Assembly (NCBI GenBank): GCA_021813385.1
Contig: JAKAKT010000090.1
Location: forward strand, 2,867-66,866
From: Candidatus Micrarchaeota archaeon
GTDB lineage: Archaea > Micrarchaeota > Micrarchaeia > Burarchaeales > JAKAKT01
Direction: 5' to 3'
Length of the DNA: 64,000 nt
Shown here: piece by piece, positions 1-8,871 of the stretch
Layout: every line of letters begins with the position of its first letter
How positions within the stretch are numbered: position 1 is the first letter of the stretch
Made by a program: the position numbers and the translations under genes
Notes under the pieces: model-generated
The model's input: the letters and a program-made list of their open reading frames with translations, nothing else
The model's database searches: none
Told to the model about the DNA's origin: nothing

Positions 1-7
1 GCGGAGT

Positions 8-877
8 TTAGTTATCTCGTTCCGAAAGATTTACCCAGACTAAATAATGGTCGCTAATCGTTGTATTAATACCGGTTTTGTAAATGCCATAATCTACGAA
101 TTCCGAGGTAGCATTTCCGTTCAGAAGAATCCTATCGTAAGCGCAGTTTGTCGCGTGCACGGTCGTATCCGCGCCTTCTGGGATAACCCAGGTCCAATTC
201 TTGAAGTGGGTCCTATTGTTTTTTGGGTAGTAGCCGCAATCGGCATTCAAATCTCCTAACACAACAGTATTCTCGCTCGCGTTTACTATCGGTTCAAGGG
301 CGGCCAGCTCGGTAGGAACCGAATCCGGAGCCGTGTGAATGTTGTATACCCGTAACTGGTAACCATCCGTCTCAAAATCGACCTCAATAGGGGGCCTCTC
401 CCACCTGTCCTTCGGGTCAGGATTAAAGTCCCTGAAACCTACAAGTTTGATGTTTTTTCGATAGATAATGCCTATCTGCTCCTTGTTTGACGAACGACCC
501 GCGCGGCTCGAATTTATGCAATTGTGGGTTGGAATCCGAGCACATAACGCTGGAAATGCGCTACCGGTTTCATCGCGGATTTCCTGGACGAACGCAATGT
601 CGTAGGCACCCAATACCCGAGCATACGCCTCAAGCAAGGTCGCATTGGATGCCTTGTGTTGTCCGAATGCCTGGAGGTTCCAGCTAGCGAGGGTTATCGA
701 CCGAACAGAGGTAGAGTTTACAGAGACGTTGCGGACAGCTTCGCCCGGCTGTCTGATTTCGCTAACGTTGCGTGCTGGCTGCAAGAATACGTAAAGGACA
801 AGCACGATAACGAGCAGGAAAACAACCAAGAGTATAAGGTTTCTTGCTCGCAAGCGTTCACCATTGTTTTTCATCAA
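8..877 (-). CDS. DNase I-like (EEP superfamily) extracellular nuclease, N-terminal TM anchor
   Basis: Translation aligns by eye to bovine DNase I across the active-site blocks: SWNLQAFG vs NIRTFG, GDLNADCGYY vs GDFNADCSYV, IPEGADTTVHATNCAYDRILL vs IPDSADTTATSTNCAYDRIVV, ISDHYLVWV vs SDHYPVEV. Both catalytic His residues are conserved. A hydrophobic N-terminal helix follows a basic start. Confidence 0.8.
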   Translation of the reverse strand: MMKNNGERLRARNLILLVVFLLVIVLVLYVFLQPARNVSEIRQPGEAVRNVSVNSTSVRSITLASWNLQAFGQHKASNATLLEAYARVLGAYDIAFVQEIRDETGSAFPALCARIPTHNCINSSRAGRSSNKEQIGIIYRKNIKLVGFRDFNPDPKDRWERPPIEVDFETDGYQLRVYNIHTAPDSVPTELAALEPIVNASENTVVLGDLNADCGYYPKNNRTHFKNWTWVIPEGADTTVHATNCAYDRILLNGNATSEFVDYGIYKTGINTTISDHYLVWVNLSERDN

Positions 878-1532
878 TCTTGTTCCCGTTCTTATCGAAC
901 AGCGTTACAGAATCGTGAGTTTTGGCCAGATAAAGTTTGGTTGTTGCTCTCGTAGGATTAAACGTCGTTCCCTTGACGGACCATTCACTATTAGGTGCGA
1001 TGATGGTTCCTGCTGGTATCGTGTAAGTTCCTTCTCCATCTGTCAGTTGCCAGCCTCCGATATCTGCCCTGGAATTGCCAGAGTTACAGAGTTGTATCAG
1101 CTGGTCGTCGGACTTTACCCCGGTTGAAGGATTGTATACGACCTTGCATATCGTAACAGTTGGTGTTTGGGTCTCCGGATTAGTAGTATTCTGTAGGGGC
1201 ACAGGTTTTACTTCAGTTTGATTTGTCGGATTCGTGGTATTCTGCGGGAGCACGGGTTTTTCTTCGGTTTTGTTTGGCCCCAACTCGGTCGTGGTGTTTG
1301 GTTGTGGCACGGTTTTGTTTGCATCTGGAACCGGCGCATCTGGACGGATAGTATTCATAACGTTCGGAATTGATGTATCCGAATCAGTAGTGTTTTGCTG
1401 GGGCGATGGTATTACTTCAGATGGATTAACCCCCGACTCGGTTTTCGCGGTAGAATTGTTCGTGCAGCCGAAAAACAAAACGACGAGCAGCAACGATGCC
1501 AAAAGGAGGACTTTCGGAGCAACCGTTCTCAT
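858..1532 (-). CDS. secreted lipoprotein with Thr/Pro/Asn-rich linker and C-terminal lamin-tail (LTD)-like domain
   Basis: Signal peptide ending in FFGC (lipobox-like). Low-complexity linker with repeated KPVLPQNTTNPTNQTE / KPVPLQNTTNPETQT. The C-terminal block ICKVVYNPSTG...DDQLIQLCNSGNSRADIGGWQLTDGEGTYTIPAGTIIAPNSEW resembles an LTD. Overlaps the downstream DNase I gene by 20 nt, which suggests an operon. Confidence 0.55.
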   Translation of the reverse strand: MRTVAPKVLLLASLLLVVLFFGCTNNSTAKTESGVNPSEVIPSPQQNTTDSDTSIPNVMNTIRPDAPVPDANKTVPQPNTTTELGPNKTEEKPVLPQNTTNPTNQTEVKPVPLQNTTNPETQTPTVTICKVVYNPSTGVKSDDQLIQLCNSGNSRADIGGWQLTDGEGTYTIPAGTIIAPNSEWSVKGTTFNPTRATTKLYLAKTHDSVTLFDKNGNKIDEKQW

Positions 1533-1593
1533 TTAATGACCGTAGTTCTATTATGATACTAAAGTATAAATACTTACGCGTCTACAATAAATA

Positions 1594-1953
1594 TTGAGAG
1601 ACCAAAGTATCCTACGGGATACGGTGGTCTTATTGAATAAGAGCTACGAGTGGATTAGTTTGCTGGTTTCCGAGGGCACGCTGGAGATTTTGAAGTATCT
1701 CGCAGAGCGAGATGTGGGACACTTTAAGGAGCTACGGAGCCTCAAAAACTTTCGCACAAAAAGGAATTTTTCATCCAACACCATCTCGCTTCGAATAAAA
1801 GAACTTGTGGGTTATGGCGCAATAGAACGGACTATCTCTGACAGTAAGGGTCGGAATCTTGTTGCTTACAGGATAACCGATGCTGGGCGTAAATGTATAG
1901 AACTTGCTGACAAATTTGACGACGAACTTTCGGTGGTTTTGAAGAAAAAATAA
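1594..1953 (+). CDS. HxlR-type winged-helix transcriptional regulator
   Basis: 119 aa. The NTISLRIKELVGYGAIER segment matches the HxlR recognition helix/wing pattern (LSxRLKELEEaGli). First gene of a tightly spaced three-gene + strand operon. Confidence 0.55.
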   Translation: MRDQSILRDTVVLLNKSYEWISLLVSEGTLEILKYLAERDVGHFKELRSLKNFRTKRNFSSNTISLRIKELVGYGAIERTISDSKGRNLVAYRITDAGRKCIELADKFDDELSVVLKKK

Positions 1954-1957
1954 TTGC

Positions 1958-2443
1958 TTGAAGGAATTAGACATGACATATAATATATTCATAAGCTACA
2001 GCTCAAAGGACCTCGAAGAAGCGAACAAAATCAAAACACTTATTGACCAAATTCCAGATGCACGGAGTTTTTTGGCGGAAACAAATTTACTTGTGGGCAG
2101 CTTAAGCCAGAATATCATTTCTGCGATACAACGGTGCGACATATTTGTAGTTCTTTATAGCAAGAATTCGCACAATTCAAGTTATGTCCAGCAGGAGATA
2201 GGAGCTGCGCGAATGAGCAACAAGCTAATTCTTCCGATAGTTCTTGACCCAGAAACCAAGCCTGACGCAATGATAAAAGAAATTGGTTATCTCGCTTTCT
2301 ATGACTCAACAAAAAGGCATGAAGAAATGAAAAAACTATACGACCACATTCTAAACGGAGCCAGGCAAAAGGCAAACAATCAAACGGTTCTCGGGCTTGC
2401 GCTGCTTTTGGTTTTGGCTGGCATCGCATCTGAAAAACATTGA
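1958..2443 (+). CDS. TIR-domain protein with C-terminal transmembrane helix
   Basis: N-terminal YNIFISYSSKDLEEANKI is the classic TIR strand-1/helix-A start. SSYVQQEIGAA matches the TIR catalytic-Glu block (S-x-W/Y-C/V-x-x-E-L/I). C-terminal VLGLALLLVLAGIA is hydrophobic. A 4-nt gap separates it from the upstream regulator. Confidence 0.7.
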   Translation: MKELDMTYNIFISYSSKDLEEANKIKTLIDQIPDARSFLAETNLLVGSLSQNIISAIQRCDIFVVLYSKNSHNSSYVQQEIGAARMSNKLILPIVLDPETKPDAMIKEIGYLAFYDSTKRHEEMKKLYDHILNGARQKANNQTVLGLALLLVLAGIASEKH

Positions 2444-2450
2444 AGGTAAG

Positions 2451-3359
2451 ATGATGGGTAAATCTCGTAAAAAGTCAAGAGAGAAACGAGTTAAGATTAG
2501 CCAACTGACGTTCCCAAAACCAGAAAAGAACTTCGTCAATGCATATCGAAATCTCACGTATCAGCATGTTATTTCCGAGCTTAAGAAGATTGAATCCACG
2601 AAAAAGACCAAACCGCCTCAGTTTGAAGAAGAAAAAAAGTATTTGGTGCAGAGTTACTCATCACAAAGTCCAGACGAGATTCAGATTGAAGACGATGACG
2701 GCACGTATTTTCCAAAACCAATTCCCTTACCTTCTGCCTTGTTCGTTCAGTTTGCTGAACCGCACGTATTGATTACTGATTGGAGCGAGGACGTTAAATC
2801 GTGGTATCATTTCCAAGAGCTTATACAGGAATTGGAAAAGCAGGCCTTCGTTTCGTATTTCCAAGGCCTTTATTATGCTTGTTTCATGTGTTCGGTTGGC
2901 TGTCTGGAGTATATTATGAAATATGAATACATACGGAAAACGCATGATGAAAGTATCTTACAAAACCAAACGTTTGGAACGATGCTAAAAAAACTGACGG
3001 ACATCAATCTCGAAAAATACAGGGAGGATTTGGAACTTGTTAATGGGATTCGCAATGGATTTTTCCATCTTAACACTGACAAACTAAAAAATTCGATTGT
3101 CGAATTGAGGACAAAACGCTACAAAAATGTAAAAATTAATACTTTAGATATGGGGACAGACCGATTAACGACTCAAACGATGGATAGAGAATACCACAAA
3201 GATACATTCGACATTCCAGATAATAAGGACATGAGCAAAATCAGTCACCATGTTTACTGCCTACTTAACAAGATTACGAATGAGTTATATGGTCCGAAAC
3301 AGCAGGCCTCATTTATCAAAGAATGCATTAGAGACTATGAAACTCGATACATGGGATAG
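2451..3359 (+). CDS. hypothetical protein with putative HEPN (DUF4145/Apea-like) domain; basic N-terminus
   Basis: 302 aa. TFGTMLKKLTDINLEKYREDLELVNGIRNGFFHLN carries an Rx4H motif (R-N-G-F-F-H) in the context typical of DUF4145-type HEPN (L..iR..gN..aH). Lys/Arg-rich N-terminal tail. Start placed at ATG 2451, 7 nt after the TIR stop, rather than the overlapping 2397. Confidence 0.45.
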   Translation: MMGKSRKKSREKRVKISQLTFPKPEKNFVNAYRNLTYQHVISELKKIESTKKTKPPQFEEEKKYLVQSYSSQSPDEIQIEDDDGTYFPKPIPLPSALFVQFAEPHVLITDWSEDVKSWYHFQELIQELEKQAFVSYFQGLYYACFMCSVGCLEYIMKYEYIRKTHDESILQNQTFGTMLKKLTDINLEKYREDLELVNGIRNGFFHLNTDKLKNSIVELRTKRYKNVKINTLDMGTDRLTTQTMDREYHKDTFDIPDNKDMSKISHHVYCLLNKITNELYGPKQQASFIKECIRDYETRYMG

Positions 3360-3402
3360 GCACACAAATAGGAAATGGAGAGAGCACTATACGGCTTCCC
3401 GC

Positions 3403-4560
3403 TCAATAAAACGCTGTCTCCTCCTCGAAAATTTTTCCATCACTGGTGACGAATTTGAGTTTTAGGTAAGGTGTTTTCGAAGAATCAAGAGGACACCCAG
3501 ATAAGGAAAGCGAACCGAAGTTATATATTATGTCTTCGTGTTCGAAGCTTCCTAATCCCAACGTGGTGCGGGAGTAATCTTGTTTCTTAACGGTGAAAGT
3601 TTTAGTGCAGGAAGTCGTTTGAGTTTCATAAATTCCATAACCGGTCTTTTCTATTATGCTTATCGTTGCTGTTCCATCCGCTGTTGACGTAGAACCTTTT
3701 TCGTTTTGGAGAATAAAATATGCCGCCAATACATTTCCCTGTTTTGATGCGTATAATGTCTTTATTCCGGTTGGCGGGAAGATGTAATTTTTGAGTTGTA
3801 GGCAACTTTCTTTCATTTGACTGTTTGTTATTCGGTTACACGCATCCTCGTCGAATATCAGATTATTATTAACGGAATACGTAACGTAATTGGAGTAGCA
3901 AACATCCTTGTTGGTCACCTGGTCGTAATAACCTTTAGCTTCGTAACTAATCTCCCGCATCGTGCCGCAGATGAAATAGTTATTTCTTATAAACGCAACT
4001 CCGAGATAACAGTTTGACAAGTAATACGGGTCCATGATTTCGTCGCACACATCGGTATTATTTTTCTGAACCGCCATAGAGACGTATTTGCTGGTATAGC
4101 AGGCTCCTACCTCTTTTTCAATTTCGTCTTTACTCATCTTCTCGGAGTTGTAGAGGTTTATACACTTGTCTTTAGTGCAAAAACCCACGTAGCACGTCAT
4201 CCCTGTCCCACATGTTGTTCCGTTCAAGACTTCGTGCTTACACTCTAAACTCGTAGTCTCACAGTAATCGCGAGTGCAGAGGTTTCCGTCGTCACAGCTT
4301 TCCGGGCATTTTTTGCATTTGCTTATATCGGTGACAGTCGTGTTGTCTGGACACGTATATGTAGGGCATTTCGAGAGGTCCATAACCGAAGTGCCGTCAG
4401 GGCAGATATATGTTTTTTGGCATTCACTTAAGTTCTTGACAACGCTACCGTCCGGGCATTCGTAGGTTTTAATAGGTCCAGTAGGGGCTTGTTGTTGAGT
4501 TGAACAACCAAATATGCCAAACGCCAAGACCAGAACGGCGAGTAGGTAAAGTGATTTCAT
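3403..4560 (-). CDS. cysteine-rich secreted lipoprotein
   Basis: Signal peptide with FGIFGCS lipobox. Three tandem ~17-aa repeats Y-x-CPDG-x-V-x-x-LS-x-C. A CPESCDDGNLCTRDYC...CKHE module is shared with the 54499-56700 protein. Confidence 0.65.
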   Translation of the reverse strand: MKSLYLLAVLVLAFGIFGCSTQQQAPTGPIKTYECPDGSVVKNLSECQKTYICPDGTSVMDLSKCPTYTCPDNTTVTDISKCKKCPESCDDGNLCTRDYCETTSLECKHEVLNGTTCGTGMTCYVGFCTKDKCINLYNSEKMSKDEIEKEVGACYTSKYVSMAVQKNNTDVCDEIMDPYYLSNCYLGVAFIRNNYFICGTMREISYEAKGYYDQVTNKDVCYSNYVTYSVNNNLIFDEDACNRITNSQMKESCLQLKNYIFPPTGIKTLYASKQGNVLAAYFILQNEKGSTSTADGTATISIIEKTGYGIYETQTTSCTKTFTVKKQDYSRTTLGLGSFEHEDIIYNFGSLSLSGCPLDSSKTPYLKLKFVTSDGKIFEEETAFY

Positions 4561-5528
4561 GAGCGCACCTTTTTTGTCATTGCCTGGATAAGAACATAGG
4601 GCCGTAAACCATCGTCCACGGTGAAATATCTCAATTTCTCCCTATTCTTAACTCCAACAGCAATGTAATCCTTCCCAAAGTTTAGCGAGATTATTTCTTT
4701 CGGCAAGATTTGAATATTTTTGAAGCTTCCTCTAAACAGGAGCTTGCTGTTAGTTATGGATAAACTTCCGGCATCAAGTTGTTTTACCGAATGGGTCGGT
4801 TCCGATTGACCTTGTGACCCACCCAGAAATACTCCTTTTGAAACTCGGACCCCCGCGTAACCGGTTGAATAACTCCGGCCTACTCTCTCTTCGAGGAGGG
4901 CCGCTGATTCGGAGTAATAGACATTCTCGTCTTTTTCTAAAACGATACCTTGCGTGTTATCGATGGACTGAAAGGTCACGTTAAGGTCTATCTTATCGAT
5001 ACCGTCTTCTTTTTTGGATACCATTTCGTCTAAAATCTCGACGATAGGGTTGTTTTTTCCCTTTCCGAAAACAATGAGTTCGTTGGAATAGAAAACACGC
5101 CAATCGTATAAGGTTTCTTTAAAATTCTGGTTTTTTGTTTTTATTCTGAACTTATCTTGCCCGAATTCGCTTTTACCGATTGGGATATACTCGGTGTTAC
5201 AAACGGAACAACCGATTATCTGTTGACTCGTTAGCCCAAACAAGCCCTTTTTTGTCTGAACTTTTACCTGTCCTTCCTTACAAAAAACACATTTGTTAAA
5301 CAAGATTCCCTCGGGCATTTCTTTATCAGTTTGGAGTTTTACTGGGTTTGCCGAGGTTTCTTCAGGCGCGAGTGGCGTCAGAACCCTCCATTTATAAAGA
5401 AACCCGAAGATTCCCATGATAAACAAAACGAACCCGATGAAGATTGGAGCCGTAAGGAAACCGAATAATAAAAGCCACCAGCGATACTTTATTGCAAAAT
5501 TCTGTAATTTTGCAGACCCCTGATACAA
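4557..5528 (-). CDS. membrane protein with zinc-ribbon and possible PH-like C-terminal domain
   Basis: Two N-terminal TM helices, then CVFC...CSVC (zinc-ribbon spacing). C-terminal beta-rich region (SLSITNSKLLFRGSFKNIQILPKEIISLNF). 4-nt overlap with the upstream Cys-rich lipoprotein gene. Confidence 0.55.
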   Translation of the reverse strand: MYQGSAKLQNFAIKYRWWLLLFGFLTAPIFIGFVLFIMGIFGFLYKWRVLTPLAPEETSANPVKLQTDKEMPEGILFNKCVFCKEGQVKVQTKKGLFGLTSQQIIGCSVCNTEYIPIGKSEFGQDKFRIKTKNQNFKETLYDWRVFYSNELIVFGKGKNNPIVEILDEMVSKKEDGIDKIDLNVTFQSIDNTQGIVLEKDENVYYSESAALLEERVGRSYSTGYAGVRVSKGVFLGGSQGQSEPTHSVKQLDAGSLSITNSKLLFRGSFKNIQILPKEIISLNFGKDYIAVGVKNREKLRYFTVDDGLRPYVLIQAMTKKVRS

Positions 5529-5602
5529 TTGTTCACCCCACGTTAAAGTTAACGAAGTTTAAGGGTTTTAAGCTTTTAGCCTCTTCCGCGTTTGTGAGGT
5601 GT

Positions 5603-6151
5603 TCAGAAGGCGCTCGGTTCCGAGATATTCGACTTCATTAGTTTCTCGCGGATAGGCGACGGTAGGAAAAACAAGGTGGCAGAGCGGCCCAGCGCTTCCT
5701 CCCGTTTCGAAACCCAACCCAAGCCCACGAAGCCGTTCAGGACCCGGATTATTGTCGTATAGGCGGGTATCTGGACTCCGTCTTTCCTGTATCCCGCCAC
5801 TATTTCTTCCGCCTTGCGACGGTCTAAAGTCGCTAAATCGATTGTCTCCTTGTCGGTTTCTATGCTCGTGGAAGAAGGCTTTTTCGGCTTTTTTGCTGGG
5901 ATGAACATTCCCCCTGTTTCTTCTACCGGTATGGAACGAATGTTTGCGACGGTGCGCATACGAAGCTTGCCGTCCTCGTGGTCCCGGATTACGCGGGTGG
6001 CGAGCCTGAAGTAGACCTGCATCGAATTAATGGCGCAACGAGCGCTGTATAGCTCCCAAATAACCTGTTGCTCGATGTGAGCAAGCGCTTCCCATTGAAA
6101 CTCCGAAGGTTGTTTCGAGGTTGGATTCGATTCTGACGCTTTTTTGACCAT
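5603..6151 (-). CDS. hypothetical protein (island-associated)
   Basis: 182-aa ORF in the AT-rich island, divergent from the integrase. No recognisable motif. Confidence 0.4.
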   Translation of the reverse strand: MVKKASESNPTSKQPSEFQWEALAHIEQQVIWELYSARCAINSMQVYFRLATRVIRDHEDGKLRMRTVANIRSIPVEETGGMFIPAKKPKKPSSTSIETDKETIDLATLDRRKAEEIVAGYRKDGVQIPAYTTIIRVLNGFVGLGWVSKREEALGRSATLFFLPSPIREKLMKSNISEPSAF

Positions 6152-6447
6152 ATAAAACCCGTTTACTTTTGTATTGCATAGTATTTCATTAGATAGCCTT
6201 ATAAATGTTTACATTTATATTAGTTAACAGGAGACAACGCAACACAATGAAAGACAAAATATGCGAACGCTCCGGAAGTGATTGAGATGGATGACAAGGC
6301 CAAACTCTTGCCAAAAAGAAGAGAGAACCGGGAATTGTTTGTCGACAAAAGAACCCGCTTAAGCGCGGTAAGGAGATTTTGCGAAATGCATCGGATAAAC
6401 ATTCAGGAAACCGAGGATGTGCTCAAAATTTTCAAGTGAGGGAGAAG

Positions 6448-7674
6448 ATGACCAAGGCAAATATCTACGGAAAGGATTTCGAGAAGGAAGTCGAGAGAAT
6501 GCTGGGCACGTTGAGCGAAGCTAACAGGAAGCCGCTCATCGGATACGTAGAACACAATCGGCAGAGAGGCGTTACATTCCAGCGCTTATACAAGATTGTC
6601 ATTAACATAAGGACATTCATAAATCGCGGTCAGGTCAGGGATATCCGCCGGACCGACGCGGGGGCCGTGAAGGAATTCTTCAACAGCACCGAGTCGCAAG
6701 GCTGCTCGATTGAAACGCTGCGGGACTACAAGATTGTCCTTTCCGGGTTTTATCGCTGGCTTCACGGCATAAAAGGGCAAACGCTGCCCCCGGAAATGGA
6801 GTTCCTTGAAGGCAGGCAATTCAAACACGTCAAGAAAAGCGGACCGGTGCTCACGGAAGAGGACATAAGACGGATGATTGATGTCTCGCTTACGCTCCGG
6901 GACAAGTGCTTTATCACGCTCCTATGGGAATCTGGCGGGCGAATCGGGGAGATACTCGGGATGCAACGAAAAGACGTGCTGGCAGAAAACAAGGACAAAC
7001 GGGAATTCCGCCTTTATTTGGATGGGAAGACCGGCCCGAGGGAGATACTGGTAGTCGATAAGTGGGGATATGCCGACCAATACCTAAACGGGTTCGTTGG
7101 AGATAGCAAAACCTCCCTGTTTTGCACAAGACACCGCGCACACGCGACTTACCCCGCGTTCAGGAAAATGCTGACCGAGACGGCAAAACGGGCGGGAATA
7201 GACAAGAAAATCAATCCGCACTGGTTCCGCCACAGCCGGGCGACCTGTTTCGCGGAGGCCGGGATGTCCCCGATGCATATGGTCCCGTATATGGGCTGGT
7301 CCAACGGCACCAAGATGATTGGGACCTACACCCACCACTCGGCCCGCTCCGCAGATAATACGATTCGCTTGCTCCACTCGGACAACAGCGAGGAATTCAT
7401 GCGGAAGAACTTCGGCGAATTGGACAGTTGCGAAAGCAGGGCGAACCGCGTCGCCGAGGAAGAACTTCTCGACAGGTTCTTCCAAAAATACGGGGGCAGG
7501 ATAATCCAGCGGTTCGTCGAAAGCTATCAGGAGCTTGAAACCTACTCGAACGCGCCTTTAACAAATAAGAAAGATGCTCCGGCCGGGATTTTCAAACCCC
7601 TAGGTTTTCACCGTTTTTTCTTTGGGGTTGATCCAGACCTTTCTTTTTCCCAAAAAGAAAGGGAAGGATTTTGA
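6448..7674 (+). CDS. tyrosine recombinase / phage-type integrase
   Basis: HWFRHSRAT (HxxR box II) and TYTHHS (catalytic Tyr) lie near the C-terminus. Start chosen at MTKANIYG rather than the upstream M at 6379. A long C-terminal tail overlaps a tRNA on the opposite strand. Confidence 0.75.
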   Translation: MTKANIYGKDFEKEVERMLGTLSEANRKPLIGYVEHNRQRGVTFQRLYKIVINIRTFINRGQVRDIRRTDAGAVKEFFNSTESQGCSIETLRDYKIVLSGFYRWLHGIKGQTLPPEMEFLEGRQFKHVKKSGPVLTEEDIRRMIDVSLTLRDKCFITLLWESGGRIGEILGMQRKDVLAENKDKREFRLYLDGKTGPREILVVDKWGYADQYLNGFVGDSKTSLFCTRHRAHATYPAFRKMLTETAKRAGIDKKINPHWFRHSRATCFAEAGMSPMHMVPYMGWSNGTKMIGTYTHHSARSADNTIRLLHSDNSEEFMRKNFGELDSCESRANRVAEEELLDRFFQKYGGRIIQRFVESYQELETYSNAPLTNKKDAPAGIFKPLGFHRFFFGVDPDLSFSQKEREGF

Positions 7675-7763
7675 ACCCGGGTCACCGGCTCGATTGGCCG
7701 TCTAGCATGCCTTGGCATTCAAGACTGAGGCCGGAATCCTTGACCGGTCTAGACTACCGGAGC
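7575..7763 (-). tRNA. interrupted tRNA (identity uncertain); candidate introns in anticodon loop and T-loop, or att-site duplication
   Basis: Minus-strand sequence GCTCCGG-TA-GTCTAGACCGGTCAAGGAT-T-CCGGC-[40 nt]-GCCGG-TGA-CCGGG-TTCAAAATCC...[~64 nt]...GGGTTTGAAAATCCCGG-CCGGAGC-A. The 7-bp acceptor stem (GCTCCGG/CCGGAGC), anticodon stem (CCGGC/GCCGG) and T-stem (CCGGG/CCCGG) are perfect. The D-arm is plausible. The T-loop sequence is partially duplicated on either side of a ~64-nt insert. Confidence 0.45.
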
Positions 7764-7818
7764 AAACGCAGGTATTTTTGGCGACTCCGAGATTTAATAA
7801 GGTTTCGAAGCCGGGTTT

Positions 7819-8871
7819 TCAATAACCCGTGATCTGGTGACAGTTGGCCTTGATCTTCGAGTCGAGGATAGAACTGCATATCTGGGAGTCTTTCAAAAGA
7901 ACCGCAGTCTCCATGTAGCAGGCGTCCTTTGTGCCTTGGTGAGAGACTTTGGCGCAGGCTGAAGCCTGCTTGTTGTTAATTGCGAATTGCGTGTAGCAGA
8001 GGTCTTTTGGCGGAACAGTGTAGTGGAGGGCATTGTCTTGGCCCACTTTTTCGCATTCGGATGCATCAGAGACGACGGGAATCCCTGGGAACAGTGTCCT
8101 ACCGCCTCCAGCCAAAACATTCGCCCCTCCCTGGCTTGGAATCGCAGAAAGATAGGGGTCGATTGCTGCGAGGATAACGCCGATATACAAGCCCATGATT
8201 AACAGAATGGGCGTTATGATGACGATGAAAGACCTTAGCACGTCCATCTTGTGGGCAATCGAGATTGCGATTGTCTCAAGGTAAATGAAATAGAGCCCCA
8301 GACCGATTGGAACCAACATGCCGATTACTCCCCCGATACACGGAATGAAGGCCAGCACGATTTCAAACGGGACGAGTAAAACACCCAATACGAGTTGGAA
8401 TAAGATAATTATTGATAGCAGGCTTGCCTGCTTTCCGAAAGCGCCAGAACCGCCAAGAATCCTTGCAATGATATAGAGCACCGCGTTCCATAGGAGGAAC
8501 ATTATGATTCCTGCTAGCGGGTAGATTACGAGCACAAATACCCCGAGCCCTGCCAAAAGGACGCCCGTATTGCCTCCTGAACCCGTTACATTGACTTCTG
8601 AACGCATGGAATTAATCCACTCAAACAGGAAGGCGATTATGAGAAAAAATAATAAGACAACTACGAATAATCCGCCTGCCACCCTGACCAGGGCTTGTAT
8701 GATACTTCCCTCCTCGAGGTCGCTCTTGAACACCGCTCTCGGGTCAGTGAAGAGCCCGGTGAGCCAGAAAGGGGTGGAACGGGATAGCCTCTCTTCCTCC
8801 ACTGGCATCTTTCCGCCTTCAGGGCCCCAGAAGGTCATCTCAGGCATCTTCCCTTCATCGTTATCTTCCAT
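7819..8871 (-). CDS. multi-pass membrane protein (Yip1-like) with C-terminal Cys-rich extracytoplasmic domain
   Basis: 350 aa with ~6 hydrophobic helices and a Cys-rich C-terminal tail. Yip1-family assignment rests only on topology and general resemblance. Confidence 0.4.
   Translation of the reverse strand: MEDNDEGKMPEMTFWGPEGGKMPVEEERLSRSTPFWLTGLFTDPRAVFKSDLEEGSIIQALVRVAGGLFVVVLLFFLIIAFLFEWINSMRSEVNVTGSGGNTGVLLAGLGVFVLVIYPLAGIIMFLLWNAVLYIIARILGGSGAFGKQASLLSIIILFQLVLGVLLVPFEIVLAFIPCIGGVIGMLVPIGLGLYFIYLETIAISIAHKMDVLRSFIVIITPILLIMGLYIGVILAAIDPYLSAIPSQGGANVLAGGGRTLFPGIPVVSDASECEKVGQDNALHYTVPPKDLCYTQFAINNKQASACAKVSHQGTKDACYMETAVLLKDSQICSSILDSKIKANCHQITGY

Follow-up and report, generated by a model that had tools for sequence, protein, structure and literature searches.

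A tRNA-Glu(CUC) gene with two predicted introns, next to a tyrosine integrase and an AT-rich island in a Micrarchaeota contig

The 64,000-nucleotide (nt) stretch of Candidatus Micrarchaeota contig JAKAKT010000090.1 (assembly GCA_021813385.1) that was analyzed here, called the window below, most probably carries a tRNA-Glu(CUC) gene interrupted by two introns, one within the anticodon and one in the T-loop. A tyrosine integrase gene on the opposite strand runs into the 3' end of this tRNA and borders an AT-rich island. Judged from the sequence, it is very probable that positions 7763..7575 form a real tRNA-Glu(CUC) gene with two introns, and that the imperfect direct repeat around its T-loop is not a duplicated attachment (att) site. 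The whole favored account, in which the island has also been integrated at the tRNA 3' end, is given a probability of about 0.8. The two-intron tRNA and the adjoining integrase island both belong to known kinds and do not form a new one. Coordinates are positions of the 64-kb window, and the tRNA is read on the minus strand (Table 1).

Table 1. Features of the interrupted tRNA locus and of the adjoining island.
Feature	Position	Strand	Remarks
tRNA-Glu(CUC) gene (predicted)	7575..7763	-	189 nt; three exons (37, 24, 14 nt) and two bulge-helix-bulge introns
Exon 1, tRNA positions 1-34	7727..7763	-	acceptor 5' strand, D arm, anticodon stem 5' strand, C32 U33 C34
Intron 1, 33 nt, between 34/35	7694..7726	-	splice-motif scan, shuffle test
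Exon 2, tRNA positions 35-59	7670..7693	-	UCGA, anticodon stem 3' strand, variable loop, T stem 5' strand, UUCAAA
Intron 2, 81 nt, between 59/60	7589..7669	-	T stem as outer helix
Exon 3, tRNA positions 60-73, UCCCGGCCGGAGCA	7575..7588	-	14 nt; candidate core of island att site
TATA-like box TTATTAAAT	7792..7800	-	~29 nt 5' of tRNA position 1
Yip1-domain membrane protein gene	7819..8871	-	PF04893; conserved chromosomal neighbor upstream of tRNA
Tyrosine integrase coding sequence, 408 amino acids	6448..7674	+	PF00589; conserved part to ~codon 373 (~7567)
AT-rich island	1..7574	.	off left window edge; ~3 kb more in L001, ~10 kb total
Candidate att core	7564..7594	.	last 6 nt of intron 2, exon 3, ~11 nt T-rich trailer
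ThsB-like TIR protein	1958-2440	+	PADLOC 1.4e-8
LTD (lamin-tail-domain) protein	858-1532	-	domain match
Exo_endo_phos protein	8-877	-	domain match

An interrupted tRNA had been proposed at this place from the letters of the sequence and their open reading frames (the sequence-only reading), and its three stems hold: acceptor GCTCCGG/CCGGAGC, anticodon CCGGC/GCCGG and T stem CCGGG/CCCGG. The 5' end, put there at 7765, is corrected to the G at 7763; the 3' discriminator A is at 7575, and CCA is not encoded at the 3' end. The proposed anticodon-loop intron of ~33 nt is retained (7726..7694) and is moved from site 37/38 to 34/35 by its splice motif and by the intronless genes described below. The interruption of the T-loop is likewise real; the ~64 nt ascribed to it correspond to the spacer between the repeat copies only, and the insert measures 81 nt (7669..7589). 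The imperfect repeat around this spacer, GGGTTCAAAATCC / GGGTTTGAAAATCC, does exist. After splicing in silico, the anticodon loop is the 7-nt CUCUCGA and the T-loop is UUCAAAU.

The 75-mer left after removing 7726..7694 and 7669..7589 is called tRNA-Glu(ctc) by ARAGORN. In the native region, ARAGORN with intron options found no tRNA at default stringency and gave two spurious calls, and nothing else, with a lowered threshold; Rfam at the gathering and permissive thresholds did not find the tRNA in the native sequence either. The anticodon loop is the sole place where ARAGORN as used allows an intron; the orthologous T-loop-intron genes likewise escape it, while intronless ones are found. When the T-loop insert alone was removed, ARAGORN called a tRNA with a 33-nt intron placed one base off, as Val. 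This Val(cac) call was dropped for Glu(CUC) by the register of the splice motif and by the intronless homologues. Even with E values of up to 0.5 admitted, ARAGORN and Rfam detected neither a tRNA nor any other RNA family in the whole window. As its one tRNA escapes both programs, further disrupted RNA genes could be hidden there.

Bulge-helix-bulge (BHB) motifs were sought by scanning all candidate splice-site pairs for a 4-bp central helix between two 3-nt bulges, with the cut after the second bulge base (arrows below). In the anticodon region, removal of 7726..7694 is the sole good solution. The motif of this intron has a complete central helix GGCC/GGCC (4/4), a complete inner helix GUCU/AGAC (4/4) and the bulges UC↓A and AA↓U, and its quality was matched in 24 of 20,000 shuffles of the 40-nt anticodon loop. 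The canonical 37/38 site was rejected; it has no central helix and would give the anticodon CAG with U37 in a tRNA without a long variable arm. A three-intron parse with a 3-nt micro-exon TCA was also discarded, having poor central helices (3/4 and 2/4).

In intron 2, the 5-bp T stem serves as the outer helix and sets the register. The central helix UUCA/UGAA is complete (4/4), which was reached in 328 of 20,000 shuffles, and the bulges are AA↓A and AA↓U. The interior of the intron contains a hairpin (7662-7638) closed by AUCC/GGAU, and the pairing AACCCC/GGGGUU stacks on the central helix. In the minimum free energy (MFE) fold of the segment spanning exons 2 and 3, the T stem, the central helix and the 3' bulge all reappear. 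Folding of the exon-intron junctions, a check suggested with the sequence-only reading, yielded a BHB motif at both of them, that of intron 2 being relaxed.

The identity of the spliced product follows from intronless homologues. The exact 24-mer of exon 2 occurs at 101 metagenome loci and 58 loci of species-representative genomes, most of which are intronless archaeal tRNA-Glu or tRNA-Asp genes reading ...CCGGCCT(C/T)↓TCGAGCCGGTGACCCGGGTTCAAA↓TCCCGGCCGGAGCA (arrows, exon junctions). Near-identical intronless tRNA-Glu(CUC) genes, ...CCGGCCTC↓TCGAGCC...TTCAAA↓TCCCGGCCGGAGCA, are called tRNA-Glu by ARAGORN. Judged by these homologues, the predicted splice product is an ordinary tRNA-Glu(CUC). 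A pattern scan of genome contigs with the 28-nt 5' exon gave 0 matches.

Orthologous genes with interruptions were found at the syntenic locus of three relatives. The first, L129, is a Candidatus Micrarchaeota contig with Yip1-like genes upstream of the tRNA. Introns of 33 nt (at 34/35) and 98 nt (at 59/60) interrupt its tRNA, and the contig aligns with window positions 7808-7611 at 82% identity. On its 3' side, 260 nt of non-coding DNA are followed by a small membrane-protein open reading frame (ORF), and the integrase is absent. The loci L175 and L176 were reached through homologues of the neighboring Yip1 protein and come from NCBI metagenome-assembled genomes (MAGs), of which that of L175 is named Candidatus Micrarchaeota. 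Both show the synteny T2SSE, 118-amino-acid protein, Yip1 and then the tRNA, and both lack the integrase. L175 (2989-3142, GCA_043799165.1) is without intron 1 and has one homologous T-loop intron of 79 nt at 58/59, with the central helix GUUC/GAAC and an 8-bp inner helix. Compared with the window, L175 is apparently a case of intron loss or gain plus intron sliding between close relatives. L176 (4749-5027, GCA_041305385.1, JBFYLO010000070.1), whose sequence recurs in L177, apparently bears four BHB inserts, located in the D-loop (49 nt), at 37/38 (54 nt), at 53/54 (77 nt, inner helix of 14 bp) and at 59/60 (24 nt). In the literature searched, no report of four introns in one archaeal tRNA gene was found; the stated maximum is three (PMC3239211).

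Spliced in silico, L175 and L176 give exactly the mature tRNA of the window, and L129 differs from it at one D-loop base. The exons therefore differ by 0-1 nt across the four species, with exon 3 identical in all orthologues, and the introns vary by substitution, indel and presence or absence. Yip1 orthologues occupy the same position in L174, L175 and L176 (42-71% identity). The flanking Yip1 proteins are just 42-43% identical, against 0-1 nt of difference in the mature tRNA. An upstream box, TTATTAAATCTCG, is conserved before the tRNA in L129, L174, L175, L176 and L177; in the window, the TTATTAAAT box would act as the promoter of the tRNA.

The inserts themselves evolve as paired structures. 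Homologues of intron 2 are present in L129, L175 and L138, and intron 1 shows compensatory changes relative to L129. In the alignment of the window with L129 and L175, 98.4% of the cells are paired and six pairs are altered on both sides. Among column shuffles, at least six both-side pairs were obtained in 2 of 500 and the percentage paired was reached in 1 of 500; sliding the partners by 1-3 columns lowers the pairing to 40-58%. Conserved exons combined with diverging but still paired inserts indicate that the exons are under strong purifying selection and that the inserts evolve as structured introns. The sequence-only reading had left the choice between a multi-intron tRNA and an att junction, and these relatives speak for the former: L129, L175 and L176 carry an interrupted tRNA-Glu(CUC) at the syntenic locus without an integrase, so that the T-loop interruption belongs to a multi-intron tRNA and not to an att site.

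A further feature of the T-loop intron is the hairpin CCUUU(U)CUUU.../...AAGAAAAGG together with the single-stranded ACCCCAAAAGAAAA (7638-7662 and 7621-7630), which are conserved in four organisms. The conserved elements of intron 2 in the window, L129, L175 and L138 exceed the apparent needs of splicing alone.

The imperfect T-loop repeat, GGGUUCAAAAUCC / GGGGUUUGAAAAUCC, is largely splice-motif sequence and not a target-site duplication. The motif UUCAA is nearly its own reverse complement, and the 3' end of the intron must pair with UUCA and end in AA↓U; the intron end consequently resembles the T-loop. The lineage-specific GGGGUU half of the repeat is paired inside intron 2. The single indel between the copies (C versus UG) converts a C-C clash into a C-G pair of the central helix, and in L129 the repeat is much weaker.

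Introns of both types were also found at more distant loci. Nine further distinct 59/60 introns have central helices of 3/4 to 4/4; in most of them the bulges are AA↓N and A(A/C)↓U, and the two introns of L059 end differently (UU↓U and AU↓U). Several unrelated lineages, among them Methanomassiliicoccales, Aenigmatarchaeota and others, have an insert right after UUCAAA together with the same central helix. Bathyarchaeia-type tRNA-Glu(UUC) loci (L032, L082, L098 and L099) contain a 34/35 intron with the same architecture as intron 1, and these introns end in GGCCAA↓UCGA, as in the window.

The integrase gene that runs into the tRNA matches PF00589 at 1.2e-20 and the phrog_1 integrase at 2.9e-28. 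The catalytic residues of a tyrosine recombinase, R-K-H-R-(H/W)-Y, are represented by R165, K194, H258, R261, W284 and Y294, which are invariant in an alignment with 12 homologues. The same 408-amino-acid gene is called in public annotations. The nearest homologues are P0002 (49%), P0003 (38-39%) and P0004 (36%); in IMG/VR, relatives of the integrase were not found. Similarity to the homologues stops at ...PLTNKK near codon 373 (~7567), ~8 nt short of tRNA position 73. The ORF and the tRNA gene overlap by 100 nt (7575..7674). The stop codon TGA (7672-7674) lies inside the T-loop, and codons 376-408 run antisense across exon 3, intron 2 and 5 nt of exon 2. Read-through of the ORF opposite the tRNA 3' half, as noticed in the sequence-only reading, is confirmed, with 33 codons plus the stop in place of ~35. 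In the integrase-free L129, the antisense strand is open across the whole tRNA as a 78-amino-acid frame with a similar peptide (...FSFGVDTDLFF...). This makes the last 33 codons of the integrase an incidental read-through, presumably non-functional.

The tails of the homologues bear on the site used by this integrase. In P0003 and P0004, the codons that correspond in the alignment to APAG of the window protein lie antisense to TCCCAGCAAGGGCA and TCCTGGCGGGGGCA, which look like a T-stem 3' strand followed by an acceptor 3' strand and A73 but do not continue into a tRNA body. Such a motif resembling a tRNA 3' end is missing from P0002, the closest homologue. A small integrase clade may thus keep attP in the 3' tail of the integrase gene, in which case the window would hold the junction proximal to this gene. 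At two distant integrase homologues on large contigs, no ARAGORN tRNA was found at the loci, which is uninformative. In the P0003 tail (L005 3047-3110, plus strand), the sequence GCCCTTG...AGAG-TTCAAAT-CTCT...CAAAGGC-A was observed, which contains a canonical T-arm-like inverted repeat and whose 7-nt ends are nearly complementary; an att core and a chance occurrence are both conceivable.

The island has a GC content of 36-48%, compared with 50-56% in the flanks. It is absent 3' of the orthologous tRNA in L129, L175 and L176, where other genes and no integrase are found. A blastn comparison of 7594-7564 with L129 2714-2743 gave 90% identity, and 7564..7594 is the putative att core. That the island was integrated at the third exon is rather more probable than the contrary. 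The proposal of the tRNA as integration target and right border of the island is plausible and has indirect support from the shift in composition, from the absence of the island in relatives and from the tails of P0003 and P0004; it falls short of proof, as no second att copy was found.

The search for this copy covered several ranges. A second copy of the T-loop repeat was not found in the window or in L001/L002. The second copy of the 3' tRNA segment that the sequence-only reading had proposed to look for at the far left of the island was not recovered; the ends of all nine island contigs fall within ~400 nt, in a stretch that is rich in GC and in hairpins, and the border may lie beyond it, perhaps in unsequenced DNA. 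The regions 3' of the tRNA in L129, L175 and L176 share no flank with the left end of the island by tblastx. Among all contigs with the Yip1 neighbor, no island-free variant of this species was found. The GC-rich stretch itself (L001 1-420, ~9.2-9.6 kb left of the integrase) is non-coding and contains perfect hairpins, e.g., GGGGGCAGCGAGCCCCC, CCCGCTTTAGCGGG and GAGGGGAAAGCTGGTTTTCCCCTC, and a 9-bp stem around GGCCCGCTTCGCGGGCC. It has no Rfam or ARAGORN match and could be an unrecognized RNA gene, a repeat or the island border.

Several observations weigh against the favored account. The outer helix of intron 1 reaches 3 bp only beyond one C-C mismatch. In intron 2, the central helix does not continue into the intron-side helix, a three-way junction being found instead, and the MFE fold reduces the 5' bulge to 1 nt; by this displacement and the shrunken bulge the motif is classed as relaxed. 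The covariation counts cover three sequences. On the side of integration, a second copy of exon 3 (≤2 mismatches) and a second copy of the 7540-7700 junction were both not found in the window and the 9.6 kb left of the integrase gene, and the tRNA-likeness of the homologue tails could reflect a protein motif (A-x-A-G) and not an att site.

The alternative that survives best, itself unlikely, accepts both introns as real and supposes that attP reached into intron 2. With a crossover near 7611, the last ~22 nt of intron 2 and exon 3 (7575-7610; segment TGAAAACCTAGGGGTT) would have been supplied by the element and would have replaced the native end. Homology to L129 does stop abruptly at 7611 and resumes only for TGAAAATCCCGGCCGGAGCA and a few T-rich bases (7594-7564); however, the integrase-free L129 and L175 have segments here that are themselves unlike in sequence and in length, which makes an element origin unneeded. 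The segment encodes FKPL, and the P0003 tail encodes FKSL from the near-identical TTCAAAYCYCTA, a similarity that is short and needs a 4-codon gap. One Logan island contig begins exactly at 7611, but the break of the second Logan contig is at 7625, within a run rich in A. The inverted repeat GGGGTTTGAAAATCCC is of the kind bound by tyrosine recombinases, and intron gain via attP sites carrying intron sequence is a published model (PMC3293823); against this, GGGGUU of the segment has its pairing partner, AACCCC, in the chromosomal part of the same intron. The Logan contig ends inside intron 2 (L171 and L180; island-side start at 7611, chromosome-side end at 7625) could represent a co-occurring variant or low-complexity sequence. 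The stronger proposal that an integrase clade (window, P0003 and P0004) carries attP in its 3' coding tail and recombines within the 14-nt third exon, maybe into the intron, is rather doubtful.

Less likely still is that the integrase is a chromosomal Xer/dif or a solitary domesticated recombinase which stands beside the tRNA by coincidence, without an integrated island. Its best NCBIfam match is indeed the archaeal XerA (NF040815, 2.8e-26), its best PDB match is the Pyrococcus XerA-like 4a8e, and the att repeat was not found. The XerA score of 92.7 bits is, however, so far under the cut-off of 220 that the integrase should not be a chromosomal Xer recombinase. The protein is 408 amino acids long with a different C-terminal region, and the gene and ~10 kb of AT-rich cargo are absent from the syntenic locus of the three relatives. 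The identical protein is restricted to contigs of one population, and the homologues are scattered on short metagenome contigs.

The reading as an integration scar, with AAAATCC as crossover core, 64 nt of remnant element DNA, the 3' tRNA piece beside the integrase as the element's attP copy and the tRNA gene broken, is the least probable and is rejected, since the 13-14-nt imperfect direct repeat around the spacer, the immediately adjoining integrase and the failure of the insert's 3' 20 nt to align with L129 are outweighed by the homologous insert in the same place in the integrase-free L129 and L175 and also in L138, by compensatory changes in three helices of the insert, by the BHB register that exactly restores UUCAAAU, by the weakness of the repeat in L129 and the C-to-UG difference that completes the central-helix pair, and by the variation of the 3' intron segment between two integrase-free species, which marks it as fast-evolving.

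Under the favored account, a 189-nt precursor of a functional tRNA would be transcribed from the conserved TTATTAAAT box in a Micrarchaeota-like host. Both junctions would fold as BHB motifs with two 3-nt bulges 4 bp apart, and the archaeal tRNA splicing endonuclease, whose gene is not contained in the window and which is presumably of the broad-specificity epsilon2 type known from Ca. Micrarchaeum, would cut both of them. RtcB-type ligation and CCA addition would then produce the canonical 75-nt tRNA. The Xer-like integrase heads the ~10-kb AT-rich island, which is set directly against the tRNA 3' end and most likely entered by site-specific integration with the 14-nt third exon and a few flanking bases as the core. 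The integrase gene would in consequence carry attP in its own 3' tail.

The remaining content of the island was analyzed in the stretch 1594-3356 (plus strand), which contains the TIR gene between a small possible regulator (1594-1950) and a 320-amino-acid protein without a family match. Several other proteins encoded by the island have no family match either. The TIR, LTD and Exo_endo_phos cargo may be a defense module. At other loci (L014, L034/L141, L062 and L149, with L141 and L149 being Archaeoglobaceae MAGs), 3' halves of tRNA-Glu(UUC) beginning at ...CCTT↓TCGAGCC join unrelated upstream DNA and resemble att half-sites left by other integrated elements with a crossover in the anticodon loop.

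A review (PMC4090602) covers multi-intron tRNAs and the rules for BHB motifs, the use of tRNA-Glu as an att site in archaea, and the hypothesis that introns protect tRNA genes. The closest known system is ARMAN-2, in which 56% of the tRNA genes are interrupted and two introns in one T-loop have been described (PMC3239211, PMC3488258). Its pre-tRNA-Cys(GCA) has a 59/60 intron and its pre-tRNA-Pro(GGG) has introns at 53/54 and 59/60 (PMC3239211, PMC3488258); cleavage of a 59/60 intron by the epsilon2 endonuclease was shown in vitro (PMC3239211). The window shares with ARMAN-2 the 59/60 T-loop site, the BHB or relaxed BHB motif, more than one intron per gene and, judging from the orthologous loci labeled Micrarchaeota, the archaeal group. 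It differs in the tRNA, which is tRNA-Glu(CUC), in the length of the 59/60 intron (81 nt versus 13 nt, with a conserved hairpin domain of its own) and in the partner intron at 34/35 within the anticodon, and cleavage is here predicted. The multi-intron tRNAs of Thermoproteales and of other archaea whose endonucleases have broad specificity (Sugahara 2007/2008, per PMC4090602) likewise have BHB introns of the 59/60 type, up to three there, differ in intron content among close relatives and are missed by standard tRNA finders. They belong to another phylum and presumably depend on another type of endonuclease. The 34/35 site is not among the examples in PMC4090602 and was found here in the Bathyarchaeia-type tRNA-Glu(UUC) loci.

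Among mobile elements, those of the pNOB8 type (PMC3293823) similarly combine an intact integrase with a directly adjoining reconstituted tRNA, the presumed att site being the 3' part of the tRNA, and archaeal elements are known to use tRNA-Glu as a target (PMC4090602). Unlike in those elements, the integrase of the window is convergent with the tRNA, the tail of its ORF overlaps it, and a second att copy was not found; the likeness described here is one of arrangement. With SSV-type integrases the window shares a presumed att site inside the integrase reading frame. Integration of the SSV type splits the integrase gene into N and C fragments, whereas that of the window is a single intact 408-amino-acid ORF, of which only the non-conserved C-terminal tail is affected and all catalytic residues are kept. 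In Caldiarchaeum subterraneum, a recombinase-bearing insertion lies by a two-intron tRNA-Thr(GGU), and a model of intron gain by integration has been proposed (PMC3293823). The arrangement in the window is comparable and raises the same question of elements creating or remodeling introns. Unlike in Caldiarchaeum, no repeat of a tRNA fragment is seen, and both introns are present in integrase-free relatives, which means that the element did not create them.

A T-loop-intron tRNA with an adjoining integrase island is an ordinary feature for these tiny archaea, with a few instructive details. The gene is a well-supported case of a heavily disrupted tRNA that is wholly missed by standard annotation. 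In closely related Micrarchaeota, one orthologous tRNA-Glu(CUC) locus has one, two or four introns at differing positions with an unchanged mature sequence, and it therefore offers a compact system for the rate at which tRNA introns are gained, lost and moved. The position of the island against a 14-nt exon behind a T-loop intron bears on the idea that introns shield tRNA genes from integration, and, provided that the att site can be located, the locus would allow this idea to be tested directly. Should the integrase indeed carry attP in its tail and recombine within the third exon, such elements would be able to target and remodel tRNA genes with an intron-split T-loop. The locus would then be a natural counter-example to the intron-protection proposal (Randau and Soll, cited in PMC3488258, PMC4090602) and a concrete case for the intron-remodeling model (PMC3293823).

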